DNA of 43,058 nucleotides. Source: a virus. The notes under the pieces are model-generated. The model was not told where the DNA came from and did not search any database. It saw nothing but the letters and a program-made list of their open reading frames with translations. The DNA is taken from the IMG/VR virus record IMGVR_UViG_3300020138_000003, positions 1-43,058 of that record, one strand, 5' to 3'. Shown in pieces: positions 5,051 through 42,800 of the stretch. Position 1 is the stretch's first letter, and each line of letters starts with the position of its first letter. The position numbers and the translations under genes are program-made.

Positions 5051-5065
5051 TTACAACTCTTGTAA
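5051..5065. repeat. iterated palindrome TTACAACTCTTGTAA (0 mismatches)
   Basis: Fills 15 of the 20 nt between the stop at 5069 and the start at 5048. Confidence 0.95.
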
Positions 5066-5614: not shown

Positions 5615-6152
5615 CGATCAAGCGCCCCTGCTTCGCCCAATCACGCCAAGGGTGAAGCTCGAAGTGGCCCCAATCGAGAAAACTCTCATCAGAGGTTTTA
5701 TCGTTCATGTTCCAATCAGCACCCCAACGAATAGGGATTTTGCGCGCTTTGGCAATGGTAAGAAACACCTGCGCAATGGCTTTGAACTTATCCACGTTGT
5801 CGAAATCAATGGGATAGGGGACGATGTCCATGGCAACGGCAGGGATATAGTTATGTGCCGACTGACCAAAGTGTGCCTTAGTGTTACCGAGCTTGAATGC
5901 CTGCTCTTGCTCGGCCCTACCACGTTGTGCATCAAGGATCACGAAGTCGATCTGTTTGATCGCCTCATCAACGATCAATTGCAGGTTCGGATGTAGTTCC
6001 TTTCGTGCATCCAAGCTGCGTTTGGAGAACTTGAACCCCGTTACAACAGTTGTAGTTAGTCCAAGATCAAGCTCAGGCTCGGTTTCCTCAACCACTTCTT
6101 GTCTCCGTTTGTAGAAAATCCAGCCGAACAAGTTACATCCACGGTTCACCAC
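5607..6152 (-). CDS. M15-family zinc peptidase (endolysin candidate), 181 aa
   Basis: The pattern SAHNYIPAVAMDIVP ... DWGHFEL fits the H-x6-D ... H metal ligands of VanY/M15 peptidases. Confidence 0.75.
   Translation of the reverse strand: MVNRGCNLFGWIFYKRRQEVVEETEPELDLGLTTTVVTGFKFSKRSLDARKELHPNLQLIVDEAIKQIDFVILDAQRGRAEQEQAFKLGNTKAHFGQSAHNYIPAVAMDIVPYPIDFDNVDKFKAIAQVFLTIAKARKIPIRWGADWNMNDKTSDESFLDWGHFELHPWRDWAKQGRLIDE
6041..6055. repeat. iterated palindrome TTACAACAGTTGTAG (1 mismatch)
   Basis: Inside the M15 peptidase gene, read as TTTVVT. Confidence 0.9.
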
Positions 6153-6595
6153 GTCAGCCCCTCACCGATGCGCCAAGCACTATCGAGTTGTTGTTCAGTC
6201 AAACCGGCAGCCCCAGCTAGTGCGGCGAGTAAGGCGTTGTCCCGAGCAAACGTCTGCTGTTCGTCAAATACAATGCGGGCGAGGACTTTCTCATCCCCAT
6301 CAGGCATTGCATCAATTAGATCATAAACAGCCTGTTTGGTAATTCCCAATTTCTGCATCATGAACAGAAAAGCAGGACGAGATAATGGCTCAAACGGTTT
6401 CGGGGGCTCTTCCATTTCGATCGGAATTAATGCGAAGCCGCCATAATTCTCATTCGTCACAGCGCCACAAACCACATCACCGTTCGGCAGGTGGATCGGG
6501 TTCGGGATCGCAGGGCACTGACCCCATGTACCTCCCCACACCTGAATTTCCGTGCCCTCACCATCGACCAGTTTGTATCCAACGATCTCGCTCAT
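6146..6595 (-). CDS. hypothetical protein, 149 aa (downstream of the fibre genes)
   Basis: Track ORF that overlaps the next gene by 7 nt. Confidence 0.6.
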   Translation of the reverse strand: MSEIVGYKLVDGEGTEIQVWGGTWGQCPAIPNPIHLPNGDVVCGAVTNENYGGFALIPIEMEEPPKPFEPLSRPAFLFMMQKLGITKQAVYDLIDAMPDGDEKVLARIVFDEQQTFARDNALLAALAGAAGLTEQQLDSAWRIGEGLTW

Positions 6596-6597
6596 AC

Positions 6598-7788
6598 CTA
6601 TAATCCCATGTTGGGCATATTGAAGCCGCCACTTGTTTTTGGTCTATAGTCGAGGACGATCAGTGAACCACCGCCGTTCCCGGACTTTGTAGCTCTGCCA
6701 GACCCGTTTCGAGTAACGCCACCGCCGCCTCCCCCGTACTTTCCTCCAGAGTTACCAGCAGCGGGAGACGACTGCGTATCTGTAAACTGAAAACCACCGC
6801 CACCGCCGCCTGTTCCATGTGCTGGATCGAACTCGGAGCCATCACCACCATCAGCTTCTGCTCCACCAGCACTCCCGGTTCCTCCGTTGCCGCCATTACC
6901 ATCACCCCCCTTTGAAGCTCCGGTACCGCTCTGATTGGTTCCGTTCCCACCATTGGCATCTGGCCCAGCTGCTCCGCCTCCACCAGTTGCACGCCGATCA
7001 TCCGCTACGGCGCCGTTGCCGCCTCTACCACCAGCCCGTTTGAGCGCCCCAACGCTTGCAGCAGTCGTACCACCAGCCCCCCCTACGGCACTCGTAGCAC
7101 GCCCTTCTGCCTTACCACCAGCCCCAGGGCCTGCACAAACTATGTAATCAGTAGGGAACACCACTCCAGTGTTCTTTGTGCTTAGGGCAGACGCACTCCC
7201 TGTCTCTCCATCAATTGCACTATTTGTTCCTGAGGGTGCCGTTGGTGTTACCACTGAGCTTTCGGTAAATACATAGAGCCTCGTAGGGAACGTGAAATTG
7301 GCAGTTTGGGCGAAAGCCCCGCCACCACCACCACCAACATTGCTATGACTTGCAACCGTGCGAATGCCTCCACCACCGCCCGGTCCTACGGCCCTTGCTG
7401 TGTTAAAGGTATCGTCCCAATCATTTGGGCGGTTTACTTGGGTATAGTTGTTATTGCCTGAATAGAACACCTGTGTAGCAAGTTCAAAGCTCAGGTGAGG
7501 TAACAGTTCTGGGTCTCCCCATACATCATTGAAATGATGAAGGTTTGGAGCATTACCACCACAACCAATATGCTGAGCCAGGTCCCAATAAAATGCGTCA
7601 AGCTCATCACGATCATCAAACCACCCAGCCCATGCGATATGCCCATCGTGCAAACGTGCACGAACACGGAACCTCGTCTGGTTCTGGTTCCCAAGAGCGT
7701 CCCTTGGCTGTGACAATGATGGCTCTCGCCATTGTAGGTGAGGTACTGGCACCAATATGCGGTTCTCATATGGTTGAAGAATGATCAT
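6598..7788 (-). CDS. glycine-rich tail-fibre-like protein, 396 aa
   Basis: Long GGxGG/GNGG tracts in the C-terminal two thirds. ATGA overlap with the upstream fibre gene. Confidence 0.5.
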   Translation of the reverse strand: MIILQPYENRILVPVPHLQWREPSLSQPRDALGNQNQTRFRVRARLHDGHIAWAGWFDDRDELDAFYWDLAQHIGCGGNAPNLHHFNDVWGDPELLPHLSFELATQVFYSGNNNYTQVNRPNDWDDTFNTARAVGPGGGGGIRTVASHSNVGGGGGGAFAQTANFTFPTRLYVFTESSVVTPTAPSGTNSAIDGETGSASALSTKNTGVVFPTDYIVCAGPGAGGKAEGRATSAVGGAGGTTAASVGALKRAGGRGGNGAVADDRRATGGGGAAGPDANGGNGTNQSGTGASKGGDGNGGNGGTGSAGGAEADGGDGSEFDPAHGTGGGGGGFQFTDTQSSPAAGNSGGKYGGGGGGVTRNGSGRATKSGNGGGSLIVLDYRPKTSGGFNMPNMGL

Positions 7789-18732: not shown

Positions 18733-19377
18733 TTATCTCCTAGTCTTGATGTTGATCGACGTACGATTTTCCTGCTCAGATACGATCTCGATCTGGAGCG
18801 TATTGCCCTCATCGGTCGAGTGTTTACCGAACAGAACGTCCTGATGCAAACCAGAGCGATCAAGCACGTCTTGGTTCGCTTTGAGCACAACGATGGGCGG
18901 GACCTTCCAGTCGCCTTCCTGCTGAATAACCTCACCAGTCTCTTCATCAGTCTCAATCTTGGGCTTGGGCTTGTAGTTCGCAAGCTCCATAACGTTCTCG
19001 ACGGCTGCGCCTGCGTATGAAGCAAGTCGAGCCTGTAGACTGTTGCTGTTCGCGCTCAGAAGCTCACCAAAGACAAGCTCAAAAGTCTCTTGGAACGCTG
19101 GCAGGGATTTTACATGCTCAATATCCGAAATCGACGTGCCAAGATGCACAGCCATTTCATTCTCAGACATGCCCAATAGCGTATAGACCATGATTGCATT
19201 GACCACGGTCTGTGTCTGGGGCTCAGCGGGCAGTTCTTTGCCCGATCTGCGCGTCTTGGGTTGGAAATTCGCAAGGTTCGGGACCGTAAGACTGAAATCT
19301 TGCGGTCCACGATCGGTCGCAGCGACGAGTTTGCCACGATTTGAGACTAAAGGGTCACCGGGCTGGGCGTATTTCAT
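18733..19377 (-). CDS. terminase small subunit candidate (HTH-containing), 214 aa
   Basis: Lies upstream of terL. HTH-like segment LGMSENEMAVHLGTSISDIEHV. Confidence 0.45.
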   Translation of the reverse strand: MKYAQPGDPLVSNRGKLVAATDRGPQDFSLTVPNLANFQPKTRRSGKELPAEPQTQTVVNAIMVYTLLGMSENEMAVHLGTSISDIEHVKSLPAFQETFELVFGELLSANSNSLQARLASYAGAAVENVMELANYKPKPKIETDEETGEVIQQEGDWKVPPIVVLKANQDVLDRSGLHQDVLFGKHSTDEGNTLQIEIVSEQENRTSINIKTRR

Positions 19378-19379
19378 CG

Positions 19380-19394
19380 TTACAACTCTTGTAA
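19380..19394. repeat. iterated palindrome TTACAACTCTTGTAA (0 mismatches)
   Basis: Intergenic, 2 nt upstream of the start at 19377. Confidence 0.95.
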
Positions 19395-19401
19395 TGGGGG
19401 A

Positions 19402-19425
19402 GGAAGGGACAAAATTGCCCCTTCC
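19402..19425 (-). terminator. hairpin GGAAGGG / CCCTTCC after the first late gene
   Basis: Read directly. No T tract. Confidence 0.3.
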
Positions 19426-19435
19426 CTAGGTAAAA

Positions 19436-19801
19436 TCAGTGTCCGAAGTACGCAACAGTGCCAAGATCACCCTTGTTGCGAGGGTAATTGGCCGGCTGCG
19501 ACACGAAACTGAGGATATTGGTGTCAAGATCGGCGACATCATCGGAAGTCGTAGCCCGATCGATGTTCGCGGCAGTCTCAATGACACGCTTGCCACCGAG
19601 TTCGGCGGTATTGTGCTGCACGCGAGCATAGTTATCGCTAGCAGTAGCACCCGGTGCGACGCCAAGAAGCGTTTTCAACAGTTCCCGATCGGACCGGGAC
19701 ATGAAATTGTCGAGTTTCTGCGCGATCCGACGCCGATTTGTCGGATGATCATTGGTCAGGACGAGGTTGTCGCCCCAAAACTCAGAATGGATGTGATACA
19801 T
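19436..19801 (-). CDS. hypothetical protein, 121 aa, first gene of the late arm
   Basis: The internal ATG at 19801 (MYHIHSEFW) is preferred. The track start at 19834 would read through a palindrome copy. Confidence 0.55.
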   Translation of the reverse strand: MYHIHSEFWGDNLVLTNDHPTNRRRIAQKLDNFMSRSDRELLKTLLGVAPGATASDNYARVQHNTAELGGKRVIETAANIDRATTSDDVADLDTNILSFVSQPANYPRNKGDLGTVAYFGH

Positions 19802-19814
19802 GGGAACACCTGCG

Positions 19815-19829
19815 TTACAACTGTTGTAA
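19815..19829. repeat. iterated palindrome TTACAACTGTTGTAA (0 mismatches)
   Basis: Lies 13 nt upstream of the start at 19801. Confidence 0.95.
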
Positions 19830-19884
19830 TGCAAACAGGTGGGATGAACAAATCCATAATGTCAACAAACAAAAACAAAGAATA

Positions 19885-19910
19885 AATCTTAATCTTAATC
19901 TTAATCTTAA
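19885..19910. repeat. tandem hexamer (AATCTT)x4 plus AA
   Basis: Read directly. An inverted partial copy (TAGATTAAGAT) lies near 19945-56. Confidence 0.85.
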
Positions 19911-19982
19911 ATAAAACAAATAATAAATCTTATCTTTCTTGTTTTAGATTAAGATACATCTCCCCTTTTGGGTTGATTTAAG

Positions 19983-20012
19983 AAAATACCAGCTTTCTTC
20001 ATGCTTTGTCAA
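19983..20012 (-). promoter_or_regulatory. candidate late-arm promoter TTGACA-18 nt-TATTTT (minus strand)
   Basis: The reverse complement of 19983..20012 reads TTGACAaagcatgaagaaagctggTATTTT. Confidence 0.3.
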
Positions 20013-20179
20013 TAGGCACGATTTGCACAACAGCGCGTCAAGCACAAATCACTACCAATCCCACAACTATACGCGGCGTAGCCGCACAGGGTTCACCCCG
20101 CCAAATTCCCTACAACTACTCATCCCCTCCCTCACGCGAGGCAAAAAATTTCTGACCCAAGGGAAGTTAGCAGATTGCC

Positions 20180-20194
20180 TTACAACAGTTATAA
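20180..20194. repeat. iterated palindrome TTACAACAGTTATAA (1 mismatch)
   Basis: In the non-coding control region. Confidence 0.9.
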
Positions 20195-20223
20195 CCGGGG
20201 GCGGGGCTGATGATTACAGTGCG

Positions 20224-20238
20224 TTACAAGAGTTGTAA
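20224..20238. repeat. iterated palindrome TTACAAGAGTTGTAA (0 mismatches)
   Basis: In the control region, 44 nt from the previous copy. Confidence 0.95.
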
Positions 20239-20288
20239 GGGTGAAGAGATTGGGCAGCGAGCACTGTGCGGCTTGGGCCGCTCTTGGC

Positions 20289-20316
20289 TTGGAGCAGATC
20301 ATGGCGCTGTTATAGT
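20289..20316 (+). promoter_or_regulatory. candidate promoter TTGGAG-16 nt-TATAGT with TG extension
   Basis: TGtTATAGT at 20308-16, at the left edge of the AT-rich block. Confidence 0.3.
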
Positions 20317-20349
20317 ATTATATATAGTATAGTATAATATATACATATG
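20310..20349. other. 40-bp AT-rich block (TATAGTAT-type repeats), candidate DNA-unwinding element or promoter cluster
   Basis: The sequence is ttatagtattatatatagtatagtataatatatacatatga, about 85 percent A+T in a genome of roughly 50 percent GC. Confidence 0.5.
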
Positions 20350-20371
20350 ATCATCGAGCATCGATCGAGCG

Positions 20372-20386
20372 TTACAGGAGTTGTAA
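20372..20386. repeat. iterated palindrome TTACAGGAGTTGTAA (1 mismatch)
   Basis: In the control region, just right of the AT-rich block. Confidence 0.9.
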
Positions 20387-20488
20387 TCGAACGTAGAGCA
20401 TCCGGTGCGATTTGGATTGCAGGAGCTATGAGGAAGCGCATAGGGGTAGGCCAACCTCGCTTCCGCTCGCCCGCGTGTCAAGGCTTCG

Positions 20489-20497
20489 TGGTAGAAT
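20489..20497 (+). promoter_or_regulatory. candidate extended -10 element TGgTAGAAT
   Basis: Read directly. No good -35 element. Confidence 0.2.
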
Positions 20498-20609
20498 AGC
20501 GTTTTGATTTACCGGGGGGACGTAGAAAATTATTCCCTGTGACATATATGCAACAGTGTCAGCCCAGCGCGTGGAACAATGTTTTAGAATTTAATTCTAT
20601 CGCGCAGTG

Positions 20610-20840
20610 TACTGCTGTTCTAGTCCAGCGCTCTAGTACGCTGCTCTAGTCCTGCGCCTATCCCTCGCGCTGGCTATAGAACACTGATCCACGGTATAGC
20701 TAGAACGATAGTTCACATGCGCGTAAGGATGTAGAACGCCGCCCTAATCTCCACCCTCTCTCATCTAATCCTGACCAAAACCCCATTCCATTACAACACT
20801 TGTACCAACATTCTAGTTCCGAACTATATTCTAGAACCAA
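20610..20840. repeat. cluster of short TCTAG / TAGAAC / GTTCTA repeats (iteron- or operator-like)
   Basis: Copies: GTTCTAG 20617, CTCTAG 20631 and 20644, ATAGAAC 20676, CTAGAAC 20700, GTAGAAC 20731, TTCTAGTTCcGAACTA 20811-27 and TTCTAGAAC 20829. Another GTTCTAGAAT lies at 21351. Confidence 0.6.
20791..20805. repeat. iterated palindrome TTACAACACTTGTAC (1 mismatch)
   Basis: In the control region, next to the TAGAAC-type repeats. Confidence 0.85.
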
Positions 20841-21435
20841 ATCGTAGTAATCTTTTATCACAATTCAGTAATCTATAGATAGATATTCCCTATTTCCCTG
20901 TATTCTTAGCATAAAAAACTACCGCGTGCCTGGGCTACATGCTATTCATGACTTCGGGCCGGGTTATCAGGCCCAGTCGCAGGGGTTTAGCCACTTCTGG
21001 GACGGCTCTTTGACATCCTAAATCGTATCCGGCTCTAGGTCGGACGTTGTGCTATGGTCATGCGATAAACAACCATAGGCGGCGAAGCTGTCAGCAATCG
21101 CGAGCATAAGTAACCTTGCTCATGACTGCCTAAGCCTCGCGAGCACAAGCAAAGGCTCTAGCCTCTGTGCTCTTTCGTGTTGGGTCTAAGGACTATCGGT
21201 TGCACGCGAGTTGCATTTGCCAGCCATGACAAAAGCGGGCTTTGCATCGGATTGTATCGGTTAGCTTGCCTACCTAACCGCCTCAACTCTAGGTTTGCGC
21301 TAGACCGATCACGAAAAAAGAGAGCCTAGGATCATTCCTGATAAAACCCCGTTCTAGAATGCAGCAAGGCGACACGGTTAGGACCCGTGTCGCTCATGGT
21401 GCATTCCGCACCTAATCAGGAAAGGACAATCTACC

Positions 21436-21657
21436 ATGTTCACCATCATTCTCACGCTCATGACTGCCCCGGTTGCTGGCGTTGCTGGTCAGGCTGTCAC
21501 GCTTGAACCGGAACTGACCATCGCCTTCACCAACACCACGGAAAAGAAAGCCACGGCCGATTGCGCCAAGGTTAACAAGGCTTTCCAGTCGGTCAATCGC
21601 ATTGCGTTCTGTTCGCCTGCCTCGCTGGCAACGCCCGCGAGCGTCACGCTCGACTAA
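21436..21657 (+). CDS. hypothetical small protein with a hydrophobic N-terminus, 73 aa
   Basis: GGAAAGGAC ends 8 nt upstream of the ATG. It is the first gene of the plus arm. Confidence 0.6.
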   Translation: MFTIILTLMTAPVAGVAGQAVTLEPELTIAFTNTTEKKATADCAKVNKAFQSVNRIAFCSPASLATPASVTLD

Positions 21658-21675
21658 CTGCCTGCAACTCAAGAG

Positions 21676-21709
21676 CGGCTTGGCGTTACAACTCTTGTAA
21701 CCCAAGCCG
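21676..21709 (+). terminator. long hairpin CGGCTTGG-c-GTTACAA ctc TTGTAAC-CCAAGCCG after the first early gene
   Basis: 15 paired positions with one bulge, read directly. The tail is not clearly T-rich. Confidence 0.45.
21686..21700. repeat. iterated palindrome TTACAACTCTTGTAA (0 mismatches)
   Basis: Apex of the longer hairpin 21676..21709, after the first early gene. Confidence 0.95.
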
Positions 21710-21761
21710 TTCCTAGGTGCTGGCAATCTCGCCTGCCCAATGTTCTTGGAAAGGACATCTA

Positions 21762-22217
21762 ATGACCATTGAACTCGTGAATGACCCGAAGCGTTTGCAC
21801 CGCATGACTGTCAGCCTTGGCAAGTCTGGTGCCAAGTTCGACACCGCCATGCACGTCATCGCCTTCAACGCTCTTTGCTTGGCGGAAAACGTTGGCGACA
21901 TCCGTCCGATGCAAGCTTTGCATGACGTGCTAACCCCGAACAATCGCGCGGCTCTCGCAGTTTGGGCGTTGGCGTTCGGCAAGTTCAGCTATGACAAGGC
22001 CGAAGCGAAGTTCAAATTCCGCAAGTCGGCCACCACTCAGCGCATTGAAGCCGAAGGCATTTCGCCCCTGAGCTATGTTAAAGCTAAGGCGAACAAGGCC
22101 GCGCCTGAGTTTGATTTGCTCGAAAGCCTTGAACGGCTCATTGCCAAGGGGCGCAAGGCGGAATGCAAGGGCAAGGTTTGGAATGCCATTCTGGCGGCTC
22201 GGCAACTCGCGCTCTAA
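21762..22217 (+). CDS. hypothetical protein, 151 aa
   Basis: ATG at 21762 is preceded by GGAAAGGAC. The track ORF starts earlier at a non-ATG codon. Confidence 0.6.
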   Translation: MTIELVNDPKRLHRMTVSLGKSGAKFDTAMHVIAFNALCLAENVGDIRPMQALHDVLTPNNRAALAVWALAFGKFSYDKAEAKFKFRKSATTQRIEAEGISPLSYVKAKANKAAPEFDLLESLERLIAKGRKAECKGKVWNAILAARQLAL

Positions 22218-22908: not shown

Positions 22909-23031
22909 CAATCTTATCGCTCGCCAAATATAGCCGTTACGTGCTATATTACATTCTCCGATCGGGCGTGAGGCTCCCCTGTCTCATGCCCATTCTCATG
23001 CCCGATCGATCGTGCCCATAGGAAAATTTCG

Positions 23032-23046
23032 TTACAACTCTTGTAA
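23032..23046. repeat. iterated palindrome TTACAACTCTTGTAA (0 mismatches)
   Basis: Intergenic, with 9-bp arms (TCGTTACAA/TTGTAACGA). Confidence 0.95.
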
Positions 23047-23091
23047 CGACTATCTTCTTCACCCCCCTATCAGCCATAGAAAGGCTTTCTC

Positions 23092-26274: not shown

Positions 26275-26281
26275 CACCCCG

Positions 26282-26296
26282 TTACAACTCTTGTAA
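26282..26296. repeat. iterated palindrome TTACAACTCTTGTAA (0 mismatches)
   Basis: Lies 7 nt after the stop at 26274. Confidence 0.95.
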
Positions 26297-26338
26297 TCTC
26301 CCTCCGTGGTTAACGTCCTCCCGCCACGGCAACTAGCT

Positions 26339-26370
26339 GGGGATTGTTGAGTTCACACTTGACAATCCCC
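26339..26370 (+). terminator. hairpin GGGGATTGT / ACAATCCCC after the 333-aa gene
   Basis: Read directly. Followed by GGCTCTTTC. Confidence 0.5.
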
Positions 26371-26393
26371 GGCTCTTTCTATCTCATACCTAT

Positions 26394-26473
26394 GGGAGCA
26401 GCAGCACACAGGCATCAAGCCCGTCCAGCACACGATGTCTTGTCCTTTCCAACATCGTGGTGCTGTTGCTCCC
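26394..26473 (+). other. 80-nt nested stem-loop (14-bp outer stem, 8-bp inner stem)
   Basis: Outer stem GGGAGCAGCAGCAC / GTGCTGTTGCTCCC with one G-T pair. Inner stem CACGATGT / ACATCGTG. Confidence 0.5.
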
Positions 26474-26570
26474 ACCCAATTCATATCTGACTGTCTGTTT
26501 TGAACAGGGGCAGTCAGTCAGTAGAGCGACTAGCATCGCCGGGCAGCGATCATAGGTCTAGCTCCGAAAG

Positions 26571-26605
26571 TGCCGTGCGAGATTATGTCTCCACGGCATT
26601 TTTGT
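26571..26605 (+). terminator. canonical intrinsic terminator TGCCGTG-loop-CACGGCA-TTTTTGT
   Basis: Read directly. Confidence 0.65.
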
Positions 26606-26678
26606 AGCTGGATTTTGTAGGTGCTCAGTGTTTGTGCCTACTTATTTTGTGAAACAAAATAAAAATAAATAATAGCTA

Positions 26679-26707
26679 TTGCCAAACTCCACAGGAGTTA
26701 TTATAAT
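26679..26707 (+). promoter_or_regulatory. near-consensus sigma70-type promoter (TTGCCA-17 nt-TATAAT)
   Basis: Read directly: TTGCCA at 26679-84, a 17-nt spacer, then TATAAT at 26702-07. It lies after a terminator cluster and upstream of the 26867 gene block. Confidence 0.6.
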
Positions 26708-26824
26708 GTCTTTAGTACAAGGGAGGGCATAGCCCGATACTTGTTGTTTTATTTTTGTTGAAACGAAATTTTATATTTTGTTTCGACCCCGTTCATTACA
26801 AGGTAAGTAGTTCCTGCCCGCGTG

Positions 26825-26839
26825 CTACAAGTCTTGTAA
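26825..26839. repeat. iterated palindrome CTACAAGTCTTGTAA (1 mismatch)
   Basis: In the 5' leader, 27 nt upstream of the ATG at 26867. Confidence 0.9.
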
Positions 26840-26866
26840 CATCTACCCTGTTCTACCCCGAAGCAA

Positions 26867-35790: not shown

Positions 35791-35991
35791 ATGAAGCTCC
35801 AGACCTACACGTTCACCTTCGGCCAGACCGTCAACACTGGCAACTACAACAGCAAGCGTTTCGAGATCACGGCAACCGTTGCCATCGACAAGCCTCTGGA
35901 AGATTGCGCTGAGGACATCGCTGAACTCGAAAACTATGTCCGCGCCAAGGTTGCCGTTATTCACGACAGGATTAAGTCCAGTGCAAACTGA
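35791..35991 (+). CDS. hypothetical protein, 66 aa
   Basis: The ATG lies 1 nt after the palindrome/stop. Confidence 0.5.
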   Translation: MKLQTYTFTFGQTVNTGNYNSKRFEITATVAIDKPLEDCAEDIAELENYVRAKVAVIHDRIKSSAN

Positions 35992-38488
35992 TCTAAAGCT
36001 CCACAAGAAGGAAATGCTCAATCGTTGTATTGAGCTTGATCTTGAACCACAGGTTCTGTGCGATGGCAGGCTCGACGCTGAGCTTGTCATCGTTGCCGAA
36101 GCTCCCGGTGGAACAGAAGTTGCACAGAAGCTCCCACTCGTTGGGAGTTCTGGTGCATTGATCTGGAACATCCTACGCCAGAACAACATCCTCCGTCCGA
36201 ACTTCTACATCACCAATGTCTGTAAGCGACAGATCAGCCTCAGCAGTGAGAAGCGTGCTGCTGTCCCTGCTGATGAATGGACACGGTGGCGCACGCTGTT
36301 TGATTGGGAAATGCGGCAGCTTACGGGTCCCAAGGTAATCCTTGCTATGGGCAACGTGGCTATCGAAGCTCTGCTCGGTGTCACTGGCATCAACAAGTTC
36401 CGTGGCTCAGTCTATGATCTGAACCTCAACGGACATGATGTTAAAGTCATGTGTACCTACAATGCTGCGGCAGTTCTTCGGCAGCCCAAGGATGAAATCA
36501 TTCTGCATTTTGACATCCGGCGGTTTGCTCAGCTTGCTCAGGGCGATTGGAAAGAGTGGCCAGTCACCACGCGCTACGATCTCAGCTTCGATGAAACCCT
36601 TGCCGAGATCGCACGGTTCAAAGCCGAGAACAAAGACACAGCCGTTGACATCGAGTGGACCTCGGGGCGCTTGGCCTGTGTCGGCTTGGCCAACGATGTT
36701 CATCATGCTGTTTGTATCAATTTCCGTGACAGGCTTTCCAATCGCTTTACGACCGAGCAGGAAATCCAAATCATGTTCGCGTTACAAGACTTGTATCAAA
36801 GTCTCGCAGCATCAGGCCACATGATCGGACAGAACAGTTCGTTCGATAGTCATGCTTCTGGCATCTTCGATCACATTGATATGCCGATGAACTATGACAC
36901 GTTGCTTGCTCACCATACACTCTATCCAACCCTACCGCACAACCTCGGTTTCCTCACCAGCATGTACACGACCATGCCGTACTACAAGGACGAGGGCTCC
37001 GAGTGGAAGGAAGATGGTGATGTCACTACGCTCTGGGAGTATAACGGTAAGGACGCCTGCGCAACCCTAGCCGCTAAGATCGGCACTGAGCAAGAGCTAA
37101 AACAGCAAGGGCTCTATGACTTCTTCATCAACCATGTCATGCACTTGCAGCCGCACCTAATCCAATCGACCATTCATGGGATCAGAGTTGATCAGGCTAT
37201 CAAGCGCAAGATCGCAACCGAACTCTCAACCGAAGTCGAGGAAAAGAAGCTCAAGTTCCAGCACTGCGCAAGGATTGCTACTGGCTTACCTGACACATAC
37301 AAGCCCAACCCTGACAGCCCAGCCCAAGTCAAAGACCTGCTCTATACTCGCCTCGGCCTACGGCATCGATCCAATTCCACCGACGCCAATGCTCGGGAAG
37401 ATATGCTCGCCGATCCTCGAACGTCGGCTGCTGCCAAGGAAGTTCTCGTCTCGCTCACCAACTACAAAGCCGATGCGAAGTTCCTGTCAACCTATGCCGA
37501 AAGCCGTGTCGATCCTGACGGCAGGTTCCGCTGCGACTGGAAACAGTACGGCGTTCAGTCAGCACCGGGGCGACTATCTTCATCCAAGACCCTTTGGGGC
37601 ACAGGGATGAACATGCAGAACCAGCCATATCGTGCTCGGCAGTTCTATATTGCTGACGACGATTGTGTGCTGATCTACTTCGACCTTGCGCAGGCTGAGG
37701 CGCGTGTTGTTGGCTACGTCGCCGACATCGACAAGTGGAAGGAAGATTTTGAACGTGCTCGTGTGTCTGGGGATTTCGACTGCCATCGATCCCTTGCCGC
37801 TGACATGTTCAAGATGCCTTACGACGACGTTCCCAAAGACGACCTTGATGAGGATGGCGAGCATACCATCCGTTACATCGCCAAGCGTTGTCGCCACGGC
37901 TTGAACTATCGAATGCAGATTGATCGACTTGCCGAAACAACAGGCTTGTCTTTCTCTCGCGCTGCTCAAGCCTATCATGCCTATCACCGCTTGACCCCAG
38001 AGCTTCAACTCTGGTGGAAGGAGATTGAACACATAGCCAAGCGTGATCGAGAACTGTTCAACGCCTTTGGTCGCAGGATGAAAATCTTGCAGCGCATTGA
38101 CGATGATGCTCTCAAGTCAATCGTTGCGTTCTATCCTCAGTCTACCATTGGGGACAAGGTCTGTGAAGTCTGGTACTCGGCACATGAAGATGATCGATGG
38201 GATAGCCACAAGGCGCGTATTCAGCTTAATGTGCATGATGCTCTCATCGGCATCGCGCACAAGGACTATGCCAAGACTGCTCTGTCGATCATGAAAGCCT
38301 ACGCAGAGAAACCGATCCTGATCGAGAACGTTTACAAGACCAAGCGTGAGCAGCTTATCATTCCTGCTGACTGCGCGATCTCTGCGCTTGAGTTCAAGGA
38401 CAAGAAAGGAAACATCGTCAAGGATACTGTCCATCGCTGGTCGAACTTGCAGAAGCTCAAGCTCGATGCAGCAAGTCTGCCGATCTGA
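35981..38488 (+). CDS. family A DNA polymerase with an N-terminal family-4 UDG-like domain and a 3'-5' exonuclease
   Basis: UDG-like segment VIVAEAPGGTEVAQKLPLVGSSGALIW. Exonuclease motifs VDIEW, QNSSFDS and YNGKD. Polymerase motifs FDLAQAEARV, RYIAKRCRHGLNY and NVHDA. The start is uncertain: GTG at 35981 overlapping the upstream stop, or ATG at 36014. Confidence 0.9.
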   Translation: MQTDLKLHKKEMLNRCIELDLEPQVLCDGRLDAELVIVAEAPGGTEVAQKLPLVGSSGALIWNILRQNNILRPNFYITNVCKRQISLSSEKRAAVPADEWTRWRTLFDWEMRQLTGPKVILAMGNVAIEALLGVTGINKFRGSVYDLNLNGHDVKVMCTYNAAAVLRQPKDEIILHFDIRRFAQLAQGDWKEWPVTTRYDLSFDETLAEIARFKAENKDTAVDIEWTSGRLACVGLANDVHHAVCINFRDRLSNRFTTEQEIQIMFALQDLYQSLAASGHMIGQNSSFDSHASGIFDHIDMPMNYDTLLAHHTLYPTLPHNLGFLTSMYTTMPYYKDEGSEWKEDGDVTTLWEYNGKDACATLAAKIGTEQELKQQGLYDFFINHVMHLQPHLIQSTIHGIRVDQAIKRKIATELSTEVEEKKLKFQHCARIATGLPDTYKPNPDSPAQVKDLLYTRLGLRHRSNSTDANAREDMLADPRTSAAAKEVLVSLTNYKADAKFLSTYAESRVDPDGRFRCDWKQYGVQSAPGRLSSSKTLWGTGMNMQNQPYRARQFYIADDDCVLIYFDLAQAEARVVGYVADIDKWKEDFERARVSGDFDCHRSLAADMFKMPYDDVPKDDLDEDGEHTIRYIAKRCRHGLNYRMQIDRLAETTGLSFSRAAQAYHAYHRLTPELQLWWKEIEHIAKRDRELFNAFGRRMKILQRIDDDALKSIVAFYPQSTIGDKVCEVWYSAHEDDRWDSHKARIQLNVHDALIGIAHKDYAKTALSIMKAYAEKPILIENVYKTKREQLIIPADCAISALEFKDKKGNIVKDTVHRWSNLQKLKLDAASLPI
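36782..36796. repeat. iterated palindrome TTACAAGACTTGTAT (1 mismatch)
   Basis: Inside the polymerase gene in the stop-containing frame, read as LQDLY. TAA is changed to TAT. Confidence 0.9.
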
Positions 38489-39534: not shown

Positions 39535-39861
39535 ATGGCCTTCTCTCTGCGCTACGCTGAACTTGTTCGTAGGCTTCTGCTTGCTGCTGGTACCAACGGC
39601 ATCGGTCAGCGTGATCTACACCAGCGTTCTCGTACTCCAAAGTACAACATCGATGACCTGCTCATGTTGCTTCATGCTTGGCAACGCCGCAATTGGGTCG
39701 ATCATTACAAGATTGGAGCTAAGCATTACTGGCGCGCGACACAGCTTTTGCATGACCAGTGGTTCATCGTTACAAGTGTTGTATCAGACGTGCTCACTGC
39801 GGACCTCCCGCCATCGGCGCTAAGTCCTTCGCAAAATCAAACCGACGACCCGGAGGCATGA
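39535..39861 (+). CDS. winged-helix-like DNA-binding protein candidate, 108 aa
   Basis: GGAGA lies 5 nt upstream of the ATG at 39535. HTH-plus-wing pattern GIGQRDLHQRSRT ... VDHYKIGAKHYWRAT. The 3' end overlaps the convergent giant gene by 68 nt. Confidence 0.45.
   Translation: MAFSLRYAELVRRLLLAAGTNGIGQRDLHQRSRTPKYNIDDLLMLLHAWQRRNWVDHYKIGAKHYWRATQLLHDQWFIVTSVVSDVLTADLPPSALSPSQNQTDDPEA
39770..39784. repeat. iterated palindrome TTACAAGTGTTGTAT (1 mismatch)
   Basis: Inside the winged-helix candidate gene, read as VTSVVS. Confidence 0.9.
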
Positions 39862-42800
39862 CCCCGGCCGCAACAAGTTGATCAGTCACGTCATCTTCGA
39901 TCTGCCTGATCTGTGCAAGCTGTTGTTCCATTGTCGCATGGCGCTCAGTTTCGAGCAAGTTGATCAGACGCTCGACATCGAACCTGTCAGTCAGGTCAAT
40001 GTCGTTGTCTTTCAACAACTGTCTTGTCTTAATCATTTGCTCGTATTGCCACTCAGTAGCTTTCGCGCTCTCAAGAGCACTTTTCGCTGCCAGCCCGGCC
40101 TCCGTCTGTGTTTTTTCTCCACGCGGAATAGCGTCATACGCTTCTTGGGCAACAGCTGTCTCCCCCTTAGCCTGTTCGTAATCGTCCACAGCACTGTCCA
40201 GTTTCTGCTCGAACTCTATATAATCCCTCTTGCGTCCAGCGTTATATCCCTTGAGCAGGTTGATTTGTTCAGTCAGCGTACCCTGCCGCGCACGGATGTT
40301 CCCCATACCATACGCGCTGTTGCTCTCCATCGAGTTCCAGATATATTCGCCCATCGCCGCATATACTGGATTGGTCGGCCTCGGGGTAGTTGGGGGCGCG
40401 ACATAGCCAATCGGCGCATCCATTGTCACACCAGCCGGACCAGCAGGGAAGTCTTGCGTTGACCGCACTACTCCGCCCCGACGATAGTGCAGGTCGTACT
40501 CATCCTTGAACTTATAATAGGCATCAAGCTTCATCCGCTGCTCTTGAGCAATCGGTGTAAAGTACGTAGCCTTACGCTTTAGCCCAGCAACGCCCTTGAG
40601 TACCGGAACCCTGGCCAGCACGTCCTCGCTAAATTCCTCAGCCGCCGCACCCGGTCCCCCCTCGCCAAAGGCATAGGCGGCATCGAGGGCATAAGCACTC
40701 GCAGCACCGAACAGTTCACGGATCGTCATTTCGACGTTCTGCGGCAGATAACCAACGTTATCCTCGGTGATGTTGTAGGCATTCCCACCGATCTCAGGCG
40801 GATTAATACCAAGCATAGCAAGCCCAGCATTGGCCAGTGGAGGCATACTGATTGGGCTCATGTTCTGCAACAAGGTCATACCGAACTGGTCAGCAGCAGC
40901 TTTCGTATGCTCGTCGCTCGATGACAAGTGTTGTAACATCTGCTGATATGGTGCAGCAAACAGCACCTGCTCATGTGCAATCGGAATGCTGATCCCCTGC
41001 TCGGGAGGCAGCCCAGGAATACCGATGTAAATCGGCTCCATGATCTGATCACGCATCGAACGCTGCTCGAACTGGTACTTGTTGTAATCATGCCCATCGG
41101 GGTTCTGCTCGCTTAGCATATTATTCCATGCCATTGATACAACACTTGGCAAGCCGACCGTCATCCATGACCGAAGCGCGAACCGTACCGGATCATCCGC
41201 AGCCGCACCAAATGCTCTGCGCACGCCCTGTATCGATGGGTTAAAATACGGCACAGAAAGCCGAACAGCCTCAGACGCACCACCGATTATTGCATCTAGT
41301 GGCACGAACGTGGGGTTCGCAGCATCTGCGGTGATCAAACGCCCTCGACTATCAAAGGCTCGGCCAGACCTGTTCGTATCACCAGTAATCCTTCGAGCAC
41401 TACCCGCAGCTTTGGCGGGATCGATCCCCGCCTTGACTGAACGCTTGAATGCCGAGTATCTCGGAGCTTCCTGCAAGCTATCGAACAGCGCACCGAAGCC
41501 CTTGATAGCTGCCCCAGCACTCACGCCCCACGATCTGCCAAGCCAAGGGTAACGCTCATTCAACTCTCGACCGATCTCATGGAACGCACCAGTCGCAACC
41601 TCCATTCGAGTACGCATGATCGAGGCGTCGTAACCACCCTGCTCTTTGGCCATCGTGTAGATCGTATTCTGCAACGAATTGGCAGCACGCTGCACGAATT
41701 GCTGAGCCGCCCCCTGTTCCATGAACGGGATCATCTGCTTCCCAGCCAGTAACCTTGCCTCAGCCGCACGAACGAAAGCCTCGGTAGCCTTAGCACTGAG
41801 GATTTCAGCCGGTGCGGTAAGCACACCAAGAATGCTGGGGCCTTTCTCACCCTTGCCGACGTTCGCAGCGCCTGCGAGTGTATCGCGGATCATTGTTGTC
41901 GGAGCAAACGTGATCGAAGCAACACCAGTCGTACCCTTTTCGAACCACCTACGGGCCGTGACGATGCTACTCCCAAGTACGCCGCGAACAGCGTAGGGAT
42001 CAAACTGTGCAATCTGCGCCTGCAACTGGCCTGTGATGTAATTCGTGGTCTTGCCCTGCCTTACAACACTTATAATGCGCGTCGGATACTTCCGAACTTC
42101 ATCCGCCGTAGCCTTCCTGATCAATGGTGATTTCTTGCCCTTGATCCTCGCAGCCTGAACATCAGATGAGAGCAAGCTATCAACGTAGTTCGCCCTCGTA
42201 TTGTTCTGCAACTGCTGATTGAGCACGCCGCGCGTATACTCGATCATCGTCTCCATCGAGTGCCGACGATCGTTGACTGCCTTGTTCCCAAGATAGTCTT
42301 TGCGCCCGAACCAAGCCTGCTCATCAACTGGGGCACGATTGTTCCTTGCAGCCTGATTGATCCTAGTCAGCAGCGGGTCGCCGGGATTGATACTCGTCGG
42401 GCTGCTCGGGACAAAGTGCTTTCTGCTCATCGCAAGGCTTTGTCCCTGATTACGCCCAATCAGTGCATTCGGCCCCTGCTGCAAGAAGTCCCTGCTTGCA
42501 TCCATCACACCCTGATAAGCTTTGCTGAACTCGGCAAGCTGCGGGTACTTGGCACGCAAGTCAGCGCGTTGTTTCTGAACAGTGCTGAGCTTTCGTTTGG
42601 CCCCCTTTGGTCCCTTCGGATTGTTTGCTTGCAATCTTAGGTCGTCGGCAAAGTCACCGAGCTTGAGATACAGATCGTATTCGCGCTGAACTTCGGGCGG
42701 AAGCTGATAGAAGCTATCATACAGCACTCGCGGAGCGACAGGCGCGTTGAAGTCTCCGAACTGCCCACGAAGCTTGCCGGAGTTCAGAGCTTCGTTGGTT

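Follow-up and report, generated by a model that had tools for sequence, protein, structure and literature searches.

INTRODUCTION

Cluster O mycobacteriophages (Corndog and its relatives) carry 17-bp dyad repeats of the form TGTTCGG-NNN-CCGAACA (PMC4351075), and Microbacterium phages of Cluster EG carry 18-bp inverted repeats (PMC7302621). The element that we describe here, in an uncultured phage, shares with them two short inverted half-sites (6–7 bp here) around a variable center of 1–3 bp (PMC4351075, PMC7302621). As in those clusters, there are at least 30 copies, intergenic as well as intragenic, in a phage without an integrase or repressor, and the copies have no meaningful orientation, are denser in part of the genome, and have no assigned function. 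On the other hand, the Cluster O and EG phages are actinobacterial siphoviruses unrelated to this one, which has no isolate match by DNA or portal among 50,697 records and a different repeat sequence. About one third of the copies are intragenic there and two thirds here, and the density is ~0.5/kb there compared to 1.07/kb here and up to 2.4/kb in one related locus. Spacing is significantly even here, and most sampled lineages of the family (at least 517 contigs) possess a dyad of their own; neither property is reported for Cluster O.

The stoperators of Cluster A phages (L5 gp71) resemble this system in that one short site is distributed over both arms of the genome, with 20–40 copies there and 46 here (PMC9283540, PMC6550527). 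Stoperators are found within or beside start and stop codons, one copy serves as an operator for the early promoter, and the sequence of the site has co-evolved with its binding protein from one subcluster to the next (PMC9283540, PMC6550527). By analogy, the stoperator system would be the best mechanistic model for a roadblock role. However, stoperators are described as asymmetric, monomer-bound, and oriented with transcription (PMC4351075, PMC9283540), while the dyads here are unoriented; they also belong to temperate phages, whereas the sites here are mostly intragenic and in a phage with no sign of lysogeny.

The start-associated sequences of Cluster K mycobacteriophages and Cluster EF Microbacterium phages are asymmetric and found only at gene starts (PMC7302621). 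Some dyad copies are like them in taking the place of the ribosome-binding site, at a constant small distance from the ATG, but only 5 of the 46 copies are at ribosome-binding sites, and none of these is among the control region's five. In ori-lambda, initiator-binding inverted repeats lie beside an A+T-rich region, with four contiguous repeats inside the initiator gene, confined to the origin. Here, too, dyads are found near A+T-rich DNA (blocks of 87.5% and 83%) in a non-coding stretch, but the sites are irregular and genome-wide, no initiator is recognized, and the skew switch is not the minus-to-plus switch of an origin. The DNA uptake sequences of Haemophilus and Neisseria occur about once per kb, evenly spread and tolerated in particular reading frames; as chromosomal, asymmetric sites, they are recognized by the competence machinery. 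The phage dyad is comparable in its frequency of ~1 per kb, its spacing, which is evener than chance, and its preferred frames in coding sequence, an analogy and not a membership; unlike uptake sequences, it forms no dense repeat in any bacterial genome among the matches listed.

RESULTS

The window, by which we mean the whole stretch of 43,058 nt that we analyzed, is probably the complete genome (~43 kb) of an uncultured, podovirus-like phage. A leftward late arm carries packaging and structural genes, a rightward early arm carries replication genes (ORF map), and between them lies the main non-coding control region (19.8–21.4 kb), the longest non-coding stretch of the genome. Domains encoded in the window include a P22-like portal, a large terminase (T4-type), an SU10-like capsid protein, a RecD-like helicase, a UDG-exonuclease-PolA fusion, and a PD-(D/E)XK nuclease. 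When ~50 ORFs were compared to Pfam and PHROGs, there was no integrase or repressor domain and no recognized primase, initiator, or helicase loader, and the phage is apparently lytic. Neither Rfam (gathering thresholds) nor a tRNA scan gave a match in the whole window. The DNA of 19000–22000 and the portal matched none of 50,697 phage records, and the portal profile found no relative in 185,579 GTDB species genomes when prophages or a host were sought.

Relatives were found by a profile scan of IMG/VR, which yielded at least 517 uncultured contigs, while a single-protein scan of IMG/VR yielded none. We sampled the family as the ±10 kb around one gene per contig (loci designated L001, L002, and so on). 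Most of the sampled loci bear their own lineage-specific 15-bp dyad, evenly spaced at ~0.4–2.4 per kb, the highest density quoted being that of L005 (up to 2.4/kb). Among the bacterial genome matches listed for the exact 17-mer GTTACAANNNTTGTAAC, the sites are scattered, with one or two in each genome, and no genome carries dense copies; the motif is not a host repeat.

In the window, the dyad has the consensus R-TTACAA-SWS-TTGTAA-Y, with S-W-S as its center. Counted at up to two mismatches to TTACAA-N3-TTGTAA, it is present in 46 copies in 43 kb (~1.07/kb); 39 matches were found where 0.03 were expected by chance. The half-sites are near-invariant over the 46 copies, conservation stops beyond 17–19 bp, and nothing is conserved within ±40 bp of the dyads. 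Lone half-sites are not enriched in the window, and the dyads have no orientation relative to transcription, their profile being the same by plus strand or by gene strand. Departures from the consensus are uncompensated, with 81% of positions paired compared to 82% in shuffles. Since there is no compensation, no excess of lone half-sites, and no orientation, the pattern points to a protein dimer on double-stranded DNA and not to a hairpin. Relatives carry other symmetric variants, such as CTACAG-N3-CTGTAG (L002 and L003), CTACAR-N3-YTGTAG (L005), TGTGTGA-N-TCACACA, TGTTTGA-N-TCAAACA, and more, and these lineage-specific forms imply a co-evolving reader protein. Some lineages also have hybrid half-sites, which are expected if each half is read separately. 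Together, these findings suggest that the dyads are most likely binding sites for a phage protein.

Inside genes, the dyads sit in the ACA...GTA frame even though GTA is the rarest valine codon, and sites come and go through synonymous or conservative changes, both of which point to selection at the DNA level. Five copies (at 5051, 11726, 12937, 19380, and 35775) lie 1–2 nt 5' of a start codon, and in all five the coding-strand center is GAG or GGG. Many copies in L002, L003, and L005 read CTACAGGAG(C/T)TGTA, followed by ATG.

A preliminary description of this DNA had placed its densest dyads, five within 1 kb compared to about one per kb elsewhere, in a divergent control region around an A+T-rich block, and this anatomy is borne out. 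The ORF map and conserved flanking genes on both sides establish the divergent region. The five copies start at 19815, 20180, 20224, 20372, and 20791, with 0, 1, 1, 2, and 2 mismatches, and the other 41 are spread over the ~42 kb outside this segment. The copies at 20224 and 20372, 148 bp apart start to start, flank a block that had been put at ~85% A+T and measures 87.5%, and -10-like hexamers are present on both of its strands (TATAAT at 20333, plus, and 20322, minus). The features of the region and its borders are as follows.

18733 to 19377: probable small terminase gene, starting ~0.44 kb from the cluster's first dyad
19436 to 19801, minus strand: first late-arm gene, 121 aa (ORF and tblastn)
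19815 to 19829, no strand: dyad copy 1 (TTACAACTGTTGTAA), 0 mismatches to TTACAACNGTTGTAA, the only perfect 7-1-7 copy in the region
19857 to 19956, no strand: largest A+T-rich block in the window, 83% A+T over 100 bp
19983 to 20012, minus strand: sigma-70-type promoter-like site, TTGACA-18 nt-TATTTT with TG before the -10 (10/12), facing the late arm
20180 to 20194, no strand: dyad copy 2 (TTACAACAGTTATAA), 1 mismatch, in a half-site
20224 to 20238, no strand: dyad copy 3 (TTACAAGAGTTGTAA), 1 mismatch, 44 bp from copy 2 and left of the next block
20310 to 20349, no strand: A+T block of the preliminary description, 87.5% A+T, with two direct repeats of 16–17 nt (TATAGTATTATATATA, TATAGTATAATATATA)
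20372 to 20386, no strand: dyad copy 4 (TTACAGGAGTTGTAA), 2 mismatches, 33 nt downstream of the plus-strand TATAAT
20489 to 20497, plus strand: TG-extended -10-like element TGgTAGAAT, read from the sequence and absent from the two-hexamer scan results
20585 to 20840, no strand: second, iteron-like repeat family, made up of the dyad TAGAAT-tta-ATTCTA (20585–20599) and about eight (C)GTTCTAG / CTAGAAC-type units
20791 to 20805, no strand: dyad copy 5 (TTACAACACTTGTAC), 2 mismatches, inside the CTAG-repeat zone
21436 to 21657, plus strand: first conserved early gene, 73 aa with a hydrophobic N-terminus, at the right edge of the non-coding region
21686 to 21700, no strand: next dyad after the cluster, nested in a longer inverted repeat (21674 to 21712) just upstream of a 166-aa early gene

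Copy 1, 13 nt ahead of the 121-aa gene's ATG, is followed closely by an AGGTG ribosome-binding sequence, and in L002, L003, L004, and L005 the homologous gene likewise has a dyad a short way upstream. This gene is kept family-wide and is always beside a dyad cluster (tblastn: 37 related loci; 140 cluster representatives), and the 73-aa early gene has tblastn matches in L002, L003, L004, L006, and L009. The inverted repeat at 21674–21712 has a predicted RNA fold of -23.4 kcal/mol (z = -7.6). When the control regions of the window and L004, its closest relative, were globally aligned, the result was mostly noise with a few shared islands. L002 and L003 share a conserved non-coding block (AAGGCACAAT...CATTGCTGGTTGAT) that has no clear counterpart in the window.

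The block at 20310–20349 is only the second most A+T-rich 40-mer in the window, and the best 100-bp window around it reaches 66% A+T compared to 83% at 19857–19956. The latter block holds (AATCTT)x4.3 at 19885–19910 and a 26-nt imperfect inverted repeat (19898–19923 / 19930–19955). The former contains TATAAT at 20333–20338 (plus) and 20322–20317 (minus), as well as eight 5/6 matches. The control-region alignment gave no counterpart of it in L004; in L003, an analogous A+T block with two TAGAATgatATTCTA units (6065–6195) is found between two dyads 116 bp apart. Most simply, the 20310–20349 block is a lineage-specific cluster of -10-like promoter elements. The helical phasing of the dyad pairs (148 bp here, 116 bp in L003) is inconsistent across relatives. 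As for the second repeat family, the control region holds seven of the window's eight TTCTAG/CTAGAA hexamers, five of them in 20585–20840, where CTAG reaches 7.5/kb compared to 0.84/kb elsewhere. L004 and L002 are likewise enriched, and the L004 dyads at 4140 and 4280 sit in the homologous CTAG-repeat zone. Judging from their sequence, these units may be sites for a second factor.

The crowding of dyads had been taken as special to this region, the densest of the window for a functional reason, and this view does not survive a control for coding status, after which the excess vanishes. Dyads number 5 over the 1634 nt of the control region (3.06/kb) and 10 over the remaining 2412 nt of non-coding sequence (4.15/kb; P=0.79), compared to 0.79/kb within genes. 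Five copies in 991 bp have P=0.48 under random placement, and the cluster stands out only against the very regular spacing of the arms (P=0.0006). Non-coding DNA as a whole has dyads at four to five times the frequency seen in genes, and this region is its longest stretch; the local crowding is unremarkable and without special meaning. Genome-wide, coding sequence on the two arms contains 31 of the 46 copies, of which 27 are over 25 nt away from a gene end, and the other 15 are non-coding. The gaps between dyads have a CV of 0.44–0.51 compared to 0.96 for random placement (P<5e-5) and 0.89 for gene boundaries or gene lengths, and the largest gap is 2739 bp, where random placement gives a mean of 4131 bp (P=0.03). 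Long genes bear a dyad about every kb, and a comparison of the window with L001 shows turnover of the intragenic positions at a maintained density.

Promoters were called as matches to the sigma-70-type consensus, which may differ from that of the host. In the two-hexamer scan, the site at 19983–20012 was the only promoter-like match in 19300–22000. A 47-nt stretch with TTGACAAAG at this late-arm promoter is 81% identical in L003, where it is inverted relative to the structural genes. The plus strand of the region has only -10-like or TG-extended -10-like elements, which face the early genes, and the element at 20489–20497 lies within an island common to L004 (gGTAGAATrGCGT). The arrangement is like lambda OR in having divergent units on both sides, with the 10/12 promoter on the minus strand only. 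This had been called the one place where the element looks like a conventional regulatory site, but the ORF-free region at 26275–26866 looks regulatory too and contains the window's best sigma-70-type promoter, between the copies at 26282 and 26825.

No dyad overlaps a core promoter in the window itself. The closest one follows a -10-like hexamer by 33 nt, and the best control-region promoter has its nearest downstream dyad at 154 nt. The first of these, copy 4, is in what would be a roadblock-type position; by inspection, a dyad likewise follows a -10-like element at 26–29 nt in L002, L003, and L004. For predicted promoters in ~40 related loci, the next dyad is 30–100 nt downstream in 22 of 95 cases (8.7% expected) and 30–50 nt downstream of the -10 in 9 of 95 (2.5% expected), an association that partly restates a shared preference for non-coding DNA. 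In two lineages the dyad is inside the core promoter, where it occupies the spacer between -35 and -10 (L077) or covers the -10 (L014). All relatives that were read have a dyad ahead of the conserved first late gene. Searching relatives for control regions by their ORF-free gaps was too noisy a method. We also considered whether the dyad belongs to promoters used by a phage sigma factor or RNA polymerase and rejected this, as no -10 or -35 lies at a fixed distance.

Searches of ~50 ORFs against Pfam and PHROGs revealed no DNA-binding domain in any early protein, and the sole DNA-binding motif, read by eye, is the helix-turn-helix MSENEMAVHLGTSISDIEHV of the probable small terminase. The AF2 model of the 121-aa protein (pLDDT 78.7) has an alpha-alpha-beta-beta-alpha topology. 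This protein had no function-bearing match in Pfam, PHROG, PDB, or BFVD, and a word-indexed homolog search returned only itself. An HU/IHF-like fold, suspected from the topology, received no support from PDB and BFVD. A conserved early protein of 333 aa was modeled at pLDDT 77.6, and Foldseek gave nothing below E=0.38.

DISCUSSION

Our best explanation, to which we give somewhat less than an even chance, is that the control-region dyads are operators or roadblocks for a dimeric phage protein at divergent promoters. A phage-specified protein would read each half-site on double-stranded DNA as a symmetric dimer, and its sites would cover the whole genome at about one per kb. In the control region, where the sites adjoin host-type promoter elements or follow them closely, they would serve as operators or roadblocks, and the bound protein would modulate both divergent units, for example, by early shut-off or by setting the timing of late genes. 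While the anatomy of the region, the dyad statistics, the conservation, and the absence of hairpin-type compensation were observed, we infer both the binding of a protein to the dyads and the regulation of transcription by that binding. What speaks against the operator explanation is that the sites are mostly coding, on both arms, and more even than gene boundaries; such sites are not explained by a purely promoter-linked regulator, and roadblocks inside essential genes of an apparently lytic phage would be odd. The lack of a recognized DNA-binding domain in the early proteins and the absence of any dyad over a core promoter in the window weigh against it as well. The layout had been offered as that of an origin or of an operator. 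The operator part is partly supported, by the divergent arms, the promoter, the -10-like elements, and the dyads that follow or lie within predicted promoters of related loci, and better so than the origin part, which the genome-wide copies and the sign of the skew do not support.

Alternatively, the dyads may serve a genome-wide function at the DNA level that is unrelated to promoters, with the control-region cluster incidental, which we regard as unlikely. Possible functions are a self-mark or ruler for the packaging of phage DNA, lagging-strand priming, or a stop or protection against a translocating nuclease, and copies would pile up where coding constraint is absent. This fits gaps more even than random placement or gene lengths, the small largest gap, the site about every kb in long genes, the turnover of intragenic positions at a kept density, and a control-region density equal to that of other non-coding DNA, and it fits the recurrence of even spacing and lineage-specific dyads across the family. 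A RecD-like helicase and a PD-(D/E)XK nuclease are encoded without a recognizable primase, as this reading would have it. On the other hand, an incidental cluster does not predict the enrichment of dyads just downstream of predicted promoters or the two cases of a dyad within one, our searches yielded no candidate for the reader protein, and we know of no packaging, priming, or Chi-like system that uses a 15-bp dyad. A genome-wide mark is compatible with the operator explanation and not exclusive of it. In its strong form, a proposal that we consider rather improbable, a large and wholly uncultured podovirus-like family would bear a ruler-like array of a lineage-specific 15- to 17-bp dyad, a self-mark read by a fast-evolving protein. 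About one copy per kb would then be kept even where essential genes pay for it in rare codons and altered amino acids, and the control-region copies would be just the unconstrained fraction of the array rather than conventional operators.

The remaining readings would give the region itself, or the dyad as a structure, a different role. A replication origin, in which an initiator binds dyads flanking an A+T-rich unwinding element (20310–20349 or 19857–19956), is not supported and is in our view quite unlikely. The two A+T-rich blocks do lie within ~30–220 bp of dyads, and there is the iteron-like family at 20585–20840; of 26 related loci whose motif is strong, 15 have their densest 1-kb dyad window 2.9–6.5 kb upstream of the portal gene; L003 also has an A+T block between two dyads; and the 333-aa early protein has helices followed by beta-hairpins, with faint MarR-like tails in Foldseek, none of them significant. 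However, 41 further copies lie outside the region, whose density is no higher than that of other non-coding DNA, the spacings (365, 44, 148, and 419 bp start to start) do not form an iteron-like, regularly phased array, a DnaA-box cluster was looked for and not found, and no initiator, primase, or helicase loader is recognized. GC skew over the whole sequence is negative on both arms, the plus-strand skew at fourfold sites goes from +0.04 to -0.22 across the region, which is the reverse of the usual origin signature, and the 20310 block is absent from L004. The same 41 copies would be unexpected of a pac site, a reading that we consider very unlikely, in which the small terminase would attach to motifs repeated around bendable, A+T-rich DNA just 5' of the operon that encodes it. 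In its favor, the cluster is 0.44 kb upstream of, and next to, the probable small terminase gene, whose product, with its helix-turn-helix, is the only recognizable sequence-reading DNA-binding protein conserved family-wide (35 loci); a T4-type large terminase and P22-like portal suggest headful packaging, and related contigs break at arbitrary places, fitting circular permutation. Its recognition helix, though, does not track the dyad class, since L080 and L073 have near-identical helices and different dyads, and helices vary widely within the CTACAG class. Least credible to us are hairpins of RNA or single-stranded DNA, acting as mRNA stabilizers, processing sites, or translational operators, with a GAG or AGGAG center presented as a ribosome-binding sequence. 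Single copies with their flanks do fold at -2.8 to -9.5 kcal/mol, the repeat at 21674–21712 folds far more stably, and the copies abutting start codons, in the window and in L002, L003, and L005, fit this reading. Pairing is, however, no better than in shuffles, and each of the three outer stem positions examined fails to pair in 17–27 of the 46 copies. The stem sequence is invariant within the genome, which structure alone does not require, there is no overall orientation bias, most copies are deep inside genes, and the wider-family 7-1-7 dyad leaves no viable loop for a full stem.

Dispersed dyad repeats have been known from a few actinobacteriophage clusters, and here they are found in an unrelated and much larger uncultured family. 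Three features constrain their mechanism: lineages have symmetric variants of their own, even spacing is kept in genes by codon choice, and copies gather near promoters. For the narrower claim, the practical lesson is that local crowding and an A+T block do not mark an origin. The control region is a natural fragment for identifying the reader protein, whose identity would open up what an array of binding sites spaced by about a kilobase does for a lytic phage.

Gene layout and anatomy of the divergent junction

The non-coding stretch 19802-21435 is the divergent junction of a late and an early arm, since minus-strand structural genes lie between 1 and ~19.8 kb (a helix-turn-helix protein that is probably the small terminase, large terminase, P22-like portal, SU10-like capsid protein, and tail proteins), while plus-strand replication-type genes occupy 21.4-39.9 kb (PD-(D/E)XK nuclease, AAA_24 ATPase, RecD-like helicase, and a UDG-exonuclease-PolA fusion). 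Among the window ORFs, called with simple ORF heuristics, we recognised no integrase, repressor, RNA polymerase, primase, or initiator. In the polymerase fusion (35791-38488), a domain of the uracil-DNA-glycosylase superfamily is joined to a 3'-5' exonuclease and a family A polymerase; the fusion recurs in the lineage of L004, the closest relative. A minus-strand ORF (1-1011) exits the window start and would be in frame with a 1082-aa ORF (39794-43058) given 14 extra source-contig bases, which implies a protein of ~1430 aa spanning the joined ends if these bases are added; since the end ORFs would join in this way, the window is probably a complete circular assembly.

The preliminary description had placed five palindromes (dyads) around an A+T block at 20310-20349 in an origin- or operator-like layout. 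We confirm the five starts (19815, 20180, 20224, 20372, and 20791, with 0, 1, 1, 2, and 2 mismatches to TTACAACNGTTGTAA), the block (87.5% A+T, with two direct repeats of 16-17 nt), and its -10-like hexamers (TATAAT at 20333 on the plus strand and 20322 on the minus strand, plus eight 5/6 matches). However, this block is not unique, as the top A+T 40-mer starts at 19889 (0.90) and the top 100-mer at 19857 (0.83). Other features of the junction, and of a second control-like region, are as follows.

Features of the junction and of a second control-like region
19815: dyad, 13 nt 5' of the ATG of the 121-aa first late gene
19857-19956: larger A+T block, the window's most A+T-rich 100 bp, with (AATCTT)x4.3 in tandem and an imperfect inverted repeat of 26 nt
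20012 to 19983, minus strand: promoter-like site TTGACA-18-TATTTT with TG, the sole two-hexamer match in 19300-22000
20585-20840: second family of repeats, made up of a TAGAAT-N3-ATTCTA dyad plus some eight GTTCTAG/CTAGAAC units
26275-26866: second ORF-free, control-like region, bracketed by dyads 26282 and 26825
26335-26374: terminator-like hairpin of 18 pairs, within the second region
26679-26707: sigma-70-type promoter match TTGCCA-17-TATAAT, the window's best, 3' of the hairpin and between A+T-rich inverted repeats

The promoter calls are predictions, based on consensus matches that may not hold for the host. The minus-strand site points to the late arm across the larger A+T block, which lies between it and dyad 19815, and across that dyad. 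The plus strand of the junction carries -10-type elements only, namely TATAAT at 20333, with dyad 20372 lying 33 nt 3' of it, and TGgTAGAAT at 20489-20497, which is among the few islands common to the window and L004. The segment 19981-20025 (TTGACAAAG...) is 81% identical to 7096-7140 of the related locus L003, yet inverted relative to the structural genes.

The repeats at 20585-20840 look like a separate, iteron-like set of putative binding sites. CTAG occurs at 7.5/kb in the control region vs 0.84/kb elsewhere (about nine times denser) and is likewise enriched in L004 and in the related locus L002. The second family also occurs at L004 4040-4360 and L003 6080-6180, and TAGAAT-N3-ATTCTA is present twice in the L003 A+T block. 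The 536 non-coding nt 5' of the first early gene (20900-21435) fold somewhat more stably than shuffles (z = -2.4), and a conserved non-coding block common to L002 and L003 in the equivalent place is not evident in the window.

The dyad as a putative protein-binding site

With up to two mismatches, the window contains 39 matches to the TTACAACNGTTGTAA pattern vs 0.03 expected, and TTACAA-N3-TTGTAA has 46 copies, whose profile is R-TTACAA-SWS-TTGTAA-Y. Aligning all 46 by plus-strand or gene-strand orientation revealed no conserved position within +/-40 bp beyond the 17-19 bp of the dyad.

These copies point to a site for a protein dimer, each half-site being read on duplex DNA, since several sequence features agree with such a reading. 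Half-sites are nearly invariant, and lone half-sites are not enriched (45 TTACAA, nearly all within dyads, vs ~9 expected by composition). In the mRNA sense, 81.0% of positions are paired vs 82.0% in shuffles, deviations are uncompensated, and at each of the three outer stem positions tested, 17-27 of the 46 copies lack pairing. Single dyads give modest RNA folds (-2.8 to -9.5 kcal/mol), lineage changes are symmetric, and hybrid sites occur. The dyad at 21674-21712 lies within a longer inverted repeat that forms a strong RNA hairpin (-23.4 kcal/mol); another at 23029-23049 is likewise embedded (-8.7 kcal/mol) and is flagged as terminator-like on both strands.

The coding sequence indicates that selection acts on the DNA at dyads. 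Intragenic copies almost always use the frame x-ACA-x-x-GTA-x (Thr...Val), where GTA is the rarest valine codon (12%), and in copies whose frame would terminate in TAA, a mismatch turns TAA into TAT/TAC. Between the window and the related locus L001 (large terminase 75% identical), dyads are gained or lost via synonymous or conservative changes, such as TAT ACA AGA CTT GTA vs TAT ACT AAG ATC GTC. Intergenic positions 3' of the capsid gene and 5' of two genes further downstream are kept across lineages. Gaps between dyads are even (CV 0.44-0.51 vs 0.96 for random placement, P<5e-5, and 0.89 for gene lengths). Where dyad specificity shifts between lineages from TTACAA to CTACAG, the two middle codons of each intragenic copy necessarily encode other amino acids.

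Five dyads (5051, 11726, 12937, 19380, and 35775), and many in L002, L003, and the related locus L005, lie 1-2 nt 5' of a start codon and have GAG, GGG, or AGGAG as their coding-strand centre; owing to this centre and position they also serve as ribosome-binding sites. At dyad 35775, the TAA also terminates the upstream gene.

Among the matches listed in a bacterial genome scan, the dyad was not supported as a host repeat. Three Bacteroidales MAGs (Alloprevotella and two others) carry the 17-mer GTTACAANNNTTGTAAC paired 63 nt apart on several contigs, probably an unrelated repeat array; pair spacing is 21 or 42 nt in two of the loci L097, L102, L106, L112, L117, and L162.

Conservation of the junction across an uncultured family

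Via homologues of the portal and of a 333-aa early protein, we reached five loci that represent four related lineages. All of them share the genome plan, a divergent ORF-poor junction of ~1.4-2 kb, and a dyad built in the same way, at 1-2.4/kb: TTACAA-N3-TTGTAA (L001, L004), CTACAG-N3-CTGTAG (L002, L003), and CTACAR-N3-YTGTAG (L005). Each junction carries 5-7 dyads, and in L004 a span of 761 bp contains five; in L002, L003, and L004, one dyad lies 26-29 nt 3' of a -10-like element, and in L003, an A+T block has a dyad on either side. L004 has no counterpart of the block at 20310, the corresponding DNA being 34-40% A+T.

A portal-profile scan of IMG/VR found at least 517 related stretches (30-49% identity), while neither 50,697 phage isolates nor GTDB species genomes contained a related portal. 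The family has no cultured member. In a census of 85 loci, most lineages had their own high-copy 15-bp dyad at 0.4-2.3/kb (e.g., TGTGTGA-N-TCACACA, TGTTTGA-N-TCAAACA, TTGTATGA-N-TCATACAA, TGTGTGT-N-ACACACA, and GATAA-N3-TTATC), and loci seemingly lacking a motif had hybrid half-sites such as GTGTGA-S-TCATAC. Gap CV was below 1 in nearly all census loci, and the densest 1-kb dyad window lay at the junction position, 2.9-6.5 kb 5' of the portal gene, in 15 of 26 strong-motif loci.

Candidate roles: operator, origin, packaging site, or genome-wide mark

The preliminary description was accurate overall, except that the crowding it considered special does not survive control for coding status. Five dyads in 991 bp are unremarkable under random placement of 46 sites (P=0.48) and improbable under a renewal process using arm gaps (P=0.0006). 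However, the control region has 5 dyads in 1634 non-coding nt (3.06/kb) vs 10 in 2412 nt (4.15/kb) in the remaining non-coding DNA (P=0.79 for an excess), while coding DNA has 0.79/kb (P=1e-5 for non-coding enrichment). Density thus peaks here as this is the longest non-coding stretch of a genome in which non-coding DNA is rich in dyads everywhere.

An operator-type interpretation of the control region, as the preliminary description offered, is the best supported, although we hold it tentatively, at slightly less than even probability. Placement near predicted promoters is the main positive support for an operator or roadblock role: among 95 sigma-70-type matches (>=10/12) in ~40 strong-motif loci, the next dyad lies 30-50 nt 3' of the -10 in 9 (2.5% expected) and 30-100 nt 3' in 22 (8.7% expected). 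In two census loci, dyads lie within promoters, filling the -35/-10 spacer in L077 (TTGACAGTGTGACTCACACATGCATAAT) and overlapping the -10 in L014. This support is weakened because promoters and dyads alike favour non-coding DNA. A less probable but serious and more novel alternative is that dyads mark the whole genome and the local cluster is incidental.

A replication origin, suggested by sites around an A+T block, is unsupported and improbable because no DnaA-box cluster was found, dyads spread beyond the control region and form no array, the GC skew of the full sequence is negative in either arm, fourfold-degenerate plus-strand skew steps from +0.04 (10-19.8 kb) to -0.22 (21-30 kb), opposite in sign to a canonical origin, and the A+T block is lineage-specific. 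The cluster is a possible pac site in that the adjoining gene encodes the probable small terminase, the sole family-wide protein with a helix-turn-helix, but its recognition helix does not follow the dyad class. No dyad-binding protein was found among the window's conserved candidates. For the 333-aa early protein (AF2 pLDDT 77.6), structure comparison gave no significant neighbour. Every related locus that covers the 121-aa first late gene retains it (37 loci; 140 cluster representatives), always beside a dyad cluster, and the gene product (AF2 model alpha-alpha-beta-beta-alpha, pLDDT 78.7) has no structure or sequence match with known function.

Stoperators of Cluster A phages are the closest mechanistic analogue of an operator or roadblock, but the window dyads show none of their defining asymmetry, orientation, or temperate context. 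Among described phenomena, the window dyads come closest to the 17-bp dyad of Cluster O mycobacteriophages, which has 34 copies, about one-third of them intragenic, no orientation, and no known function (PMC4351075), and Cluster EG Microbacterium phages have a similar 18-bp inverted repeat (PMC7302621). By this comparison, the window dyads would be the same kind of element as Cluster O-type repeats, and new in their even spacing, intragenic majority, and family-wide diversification.
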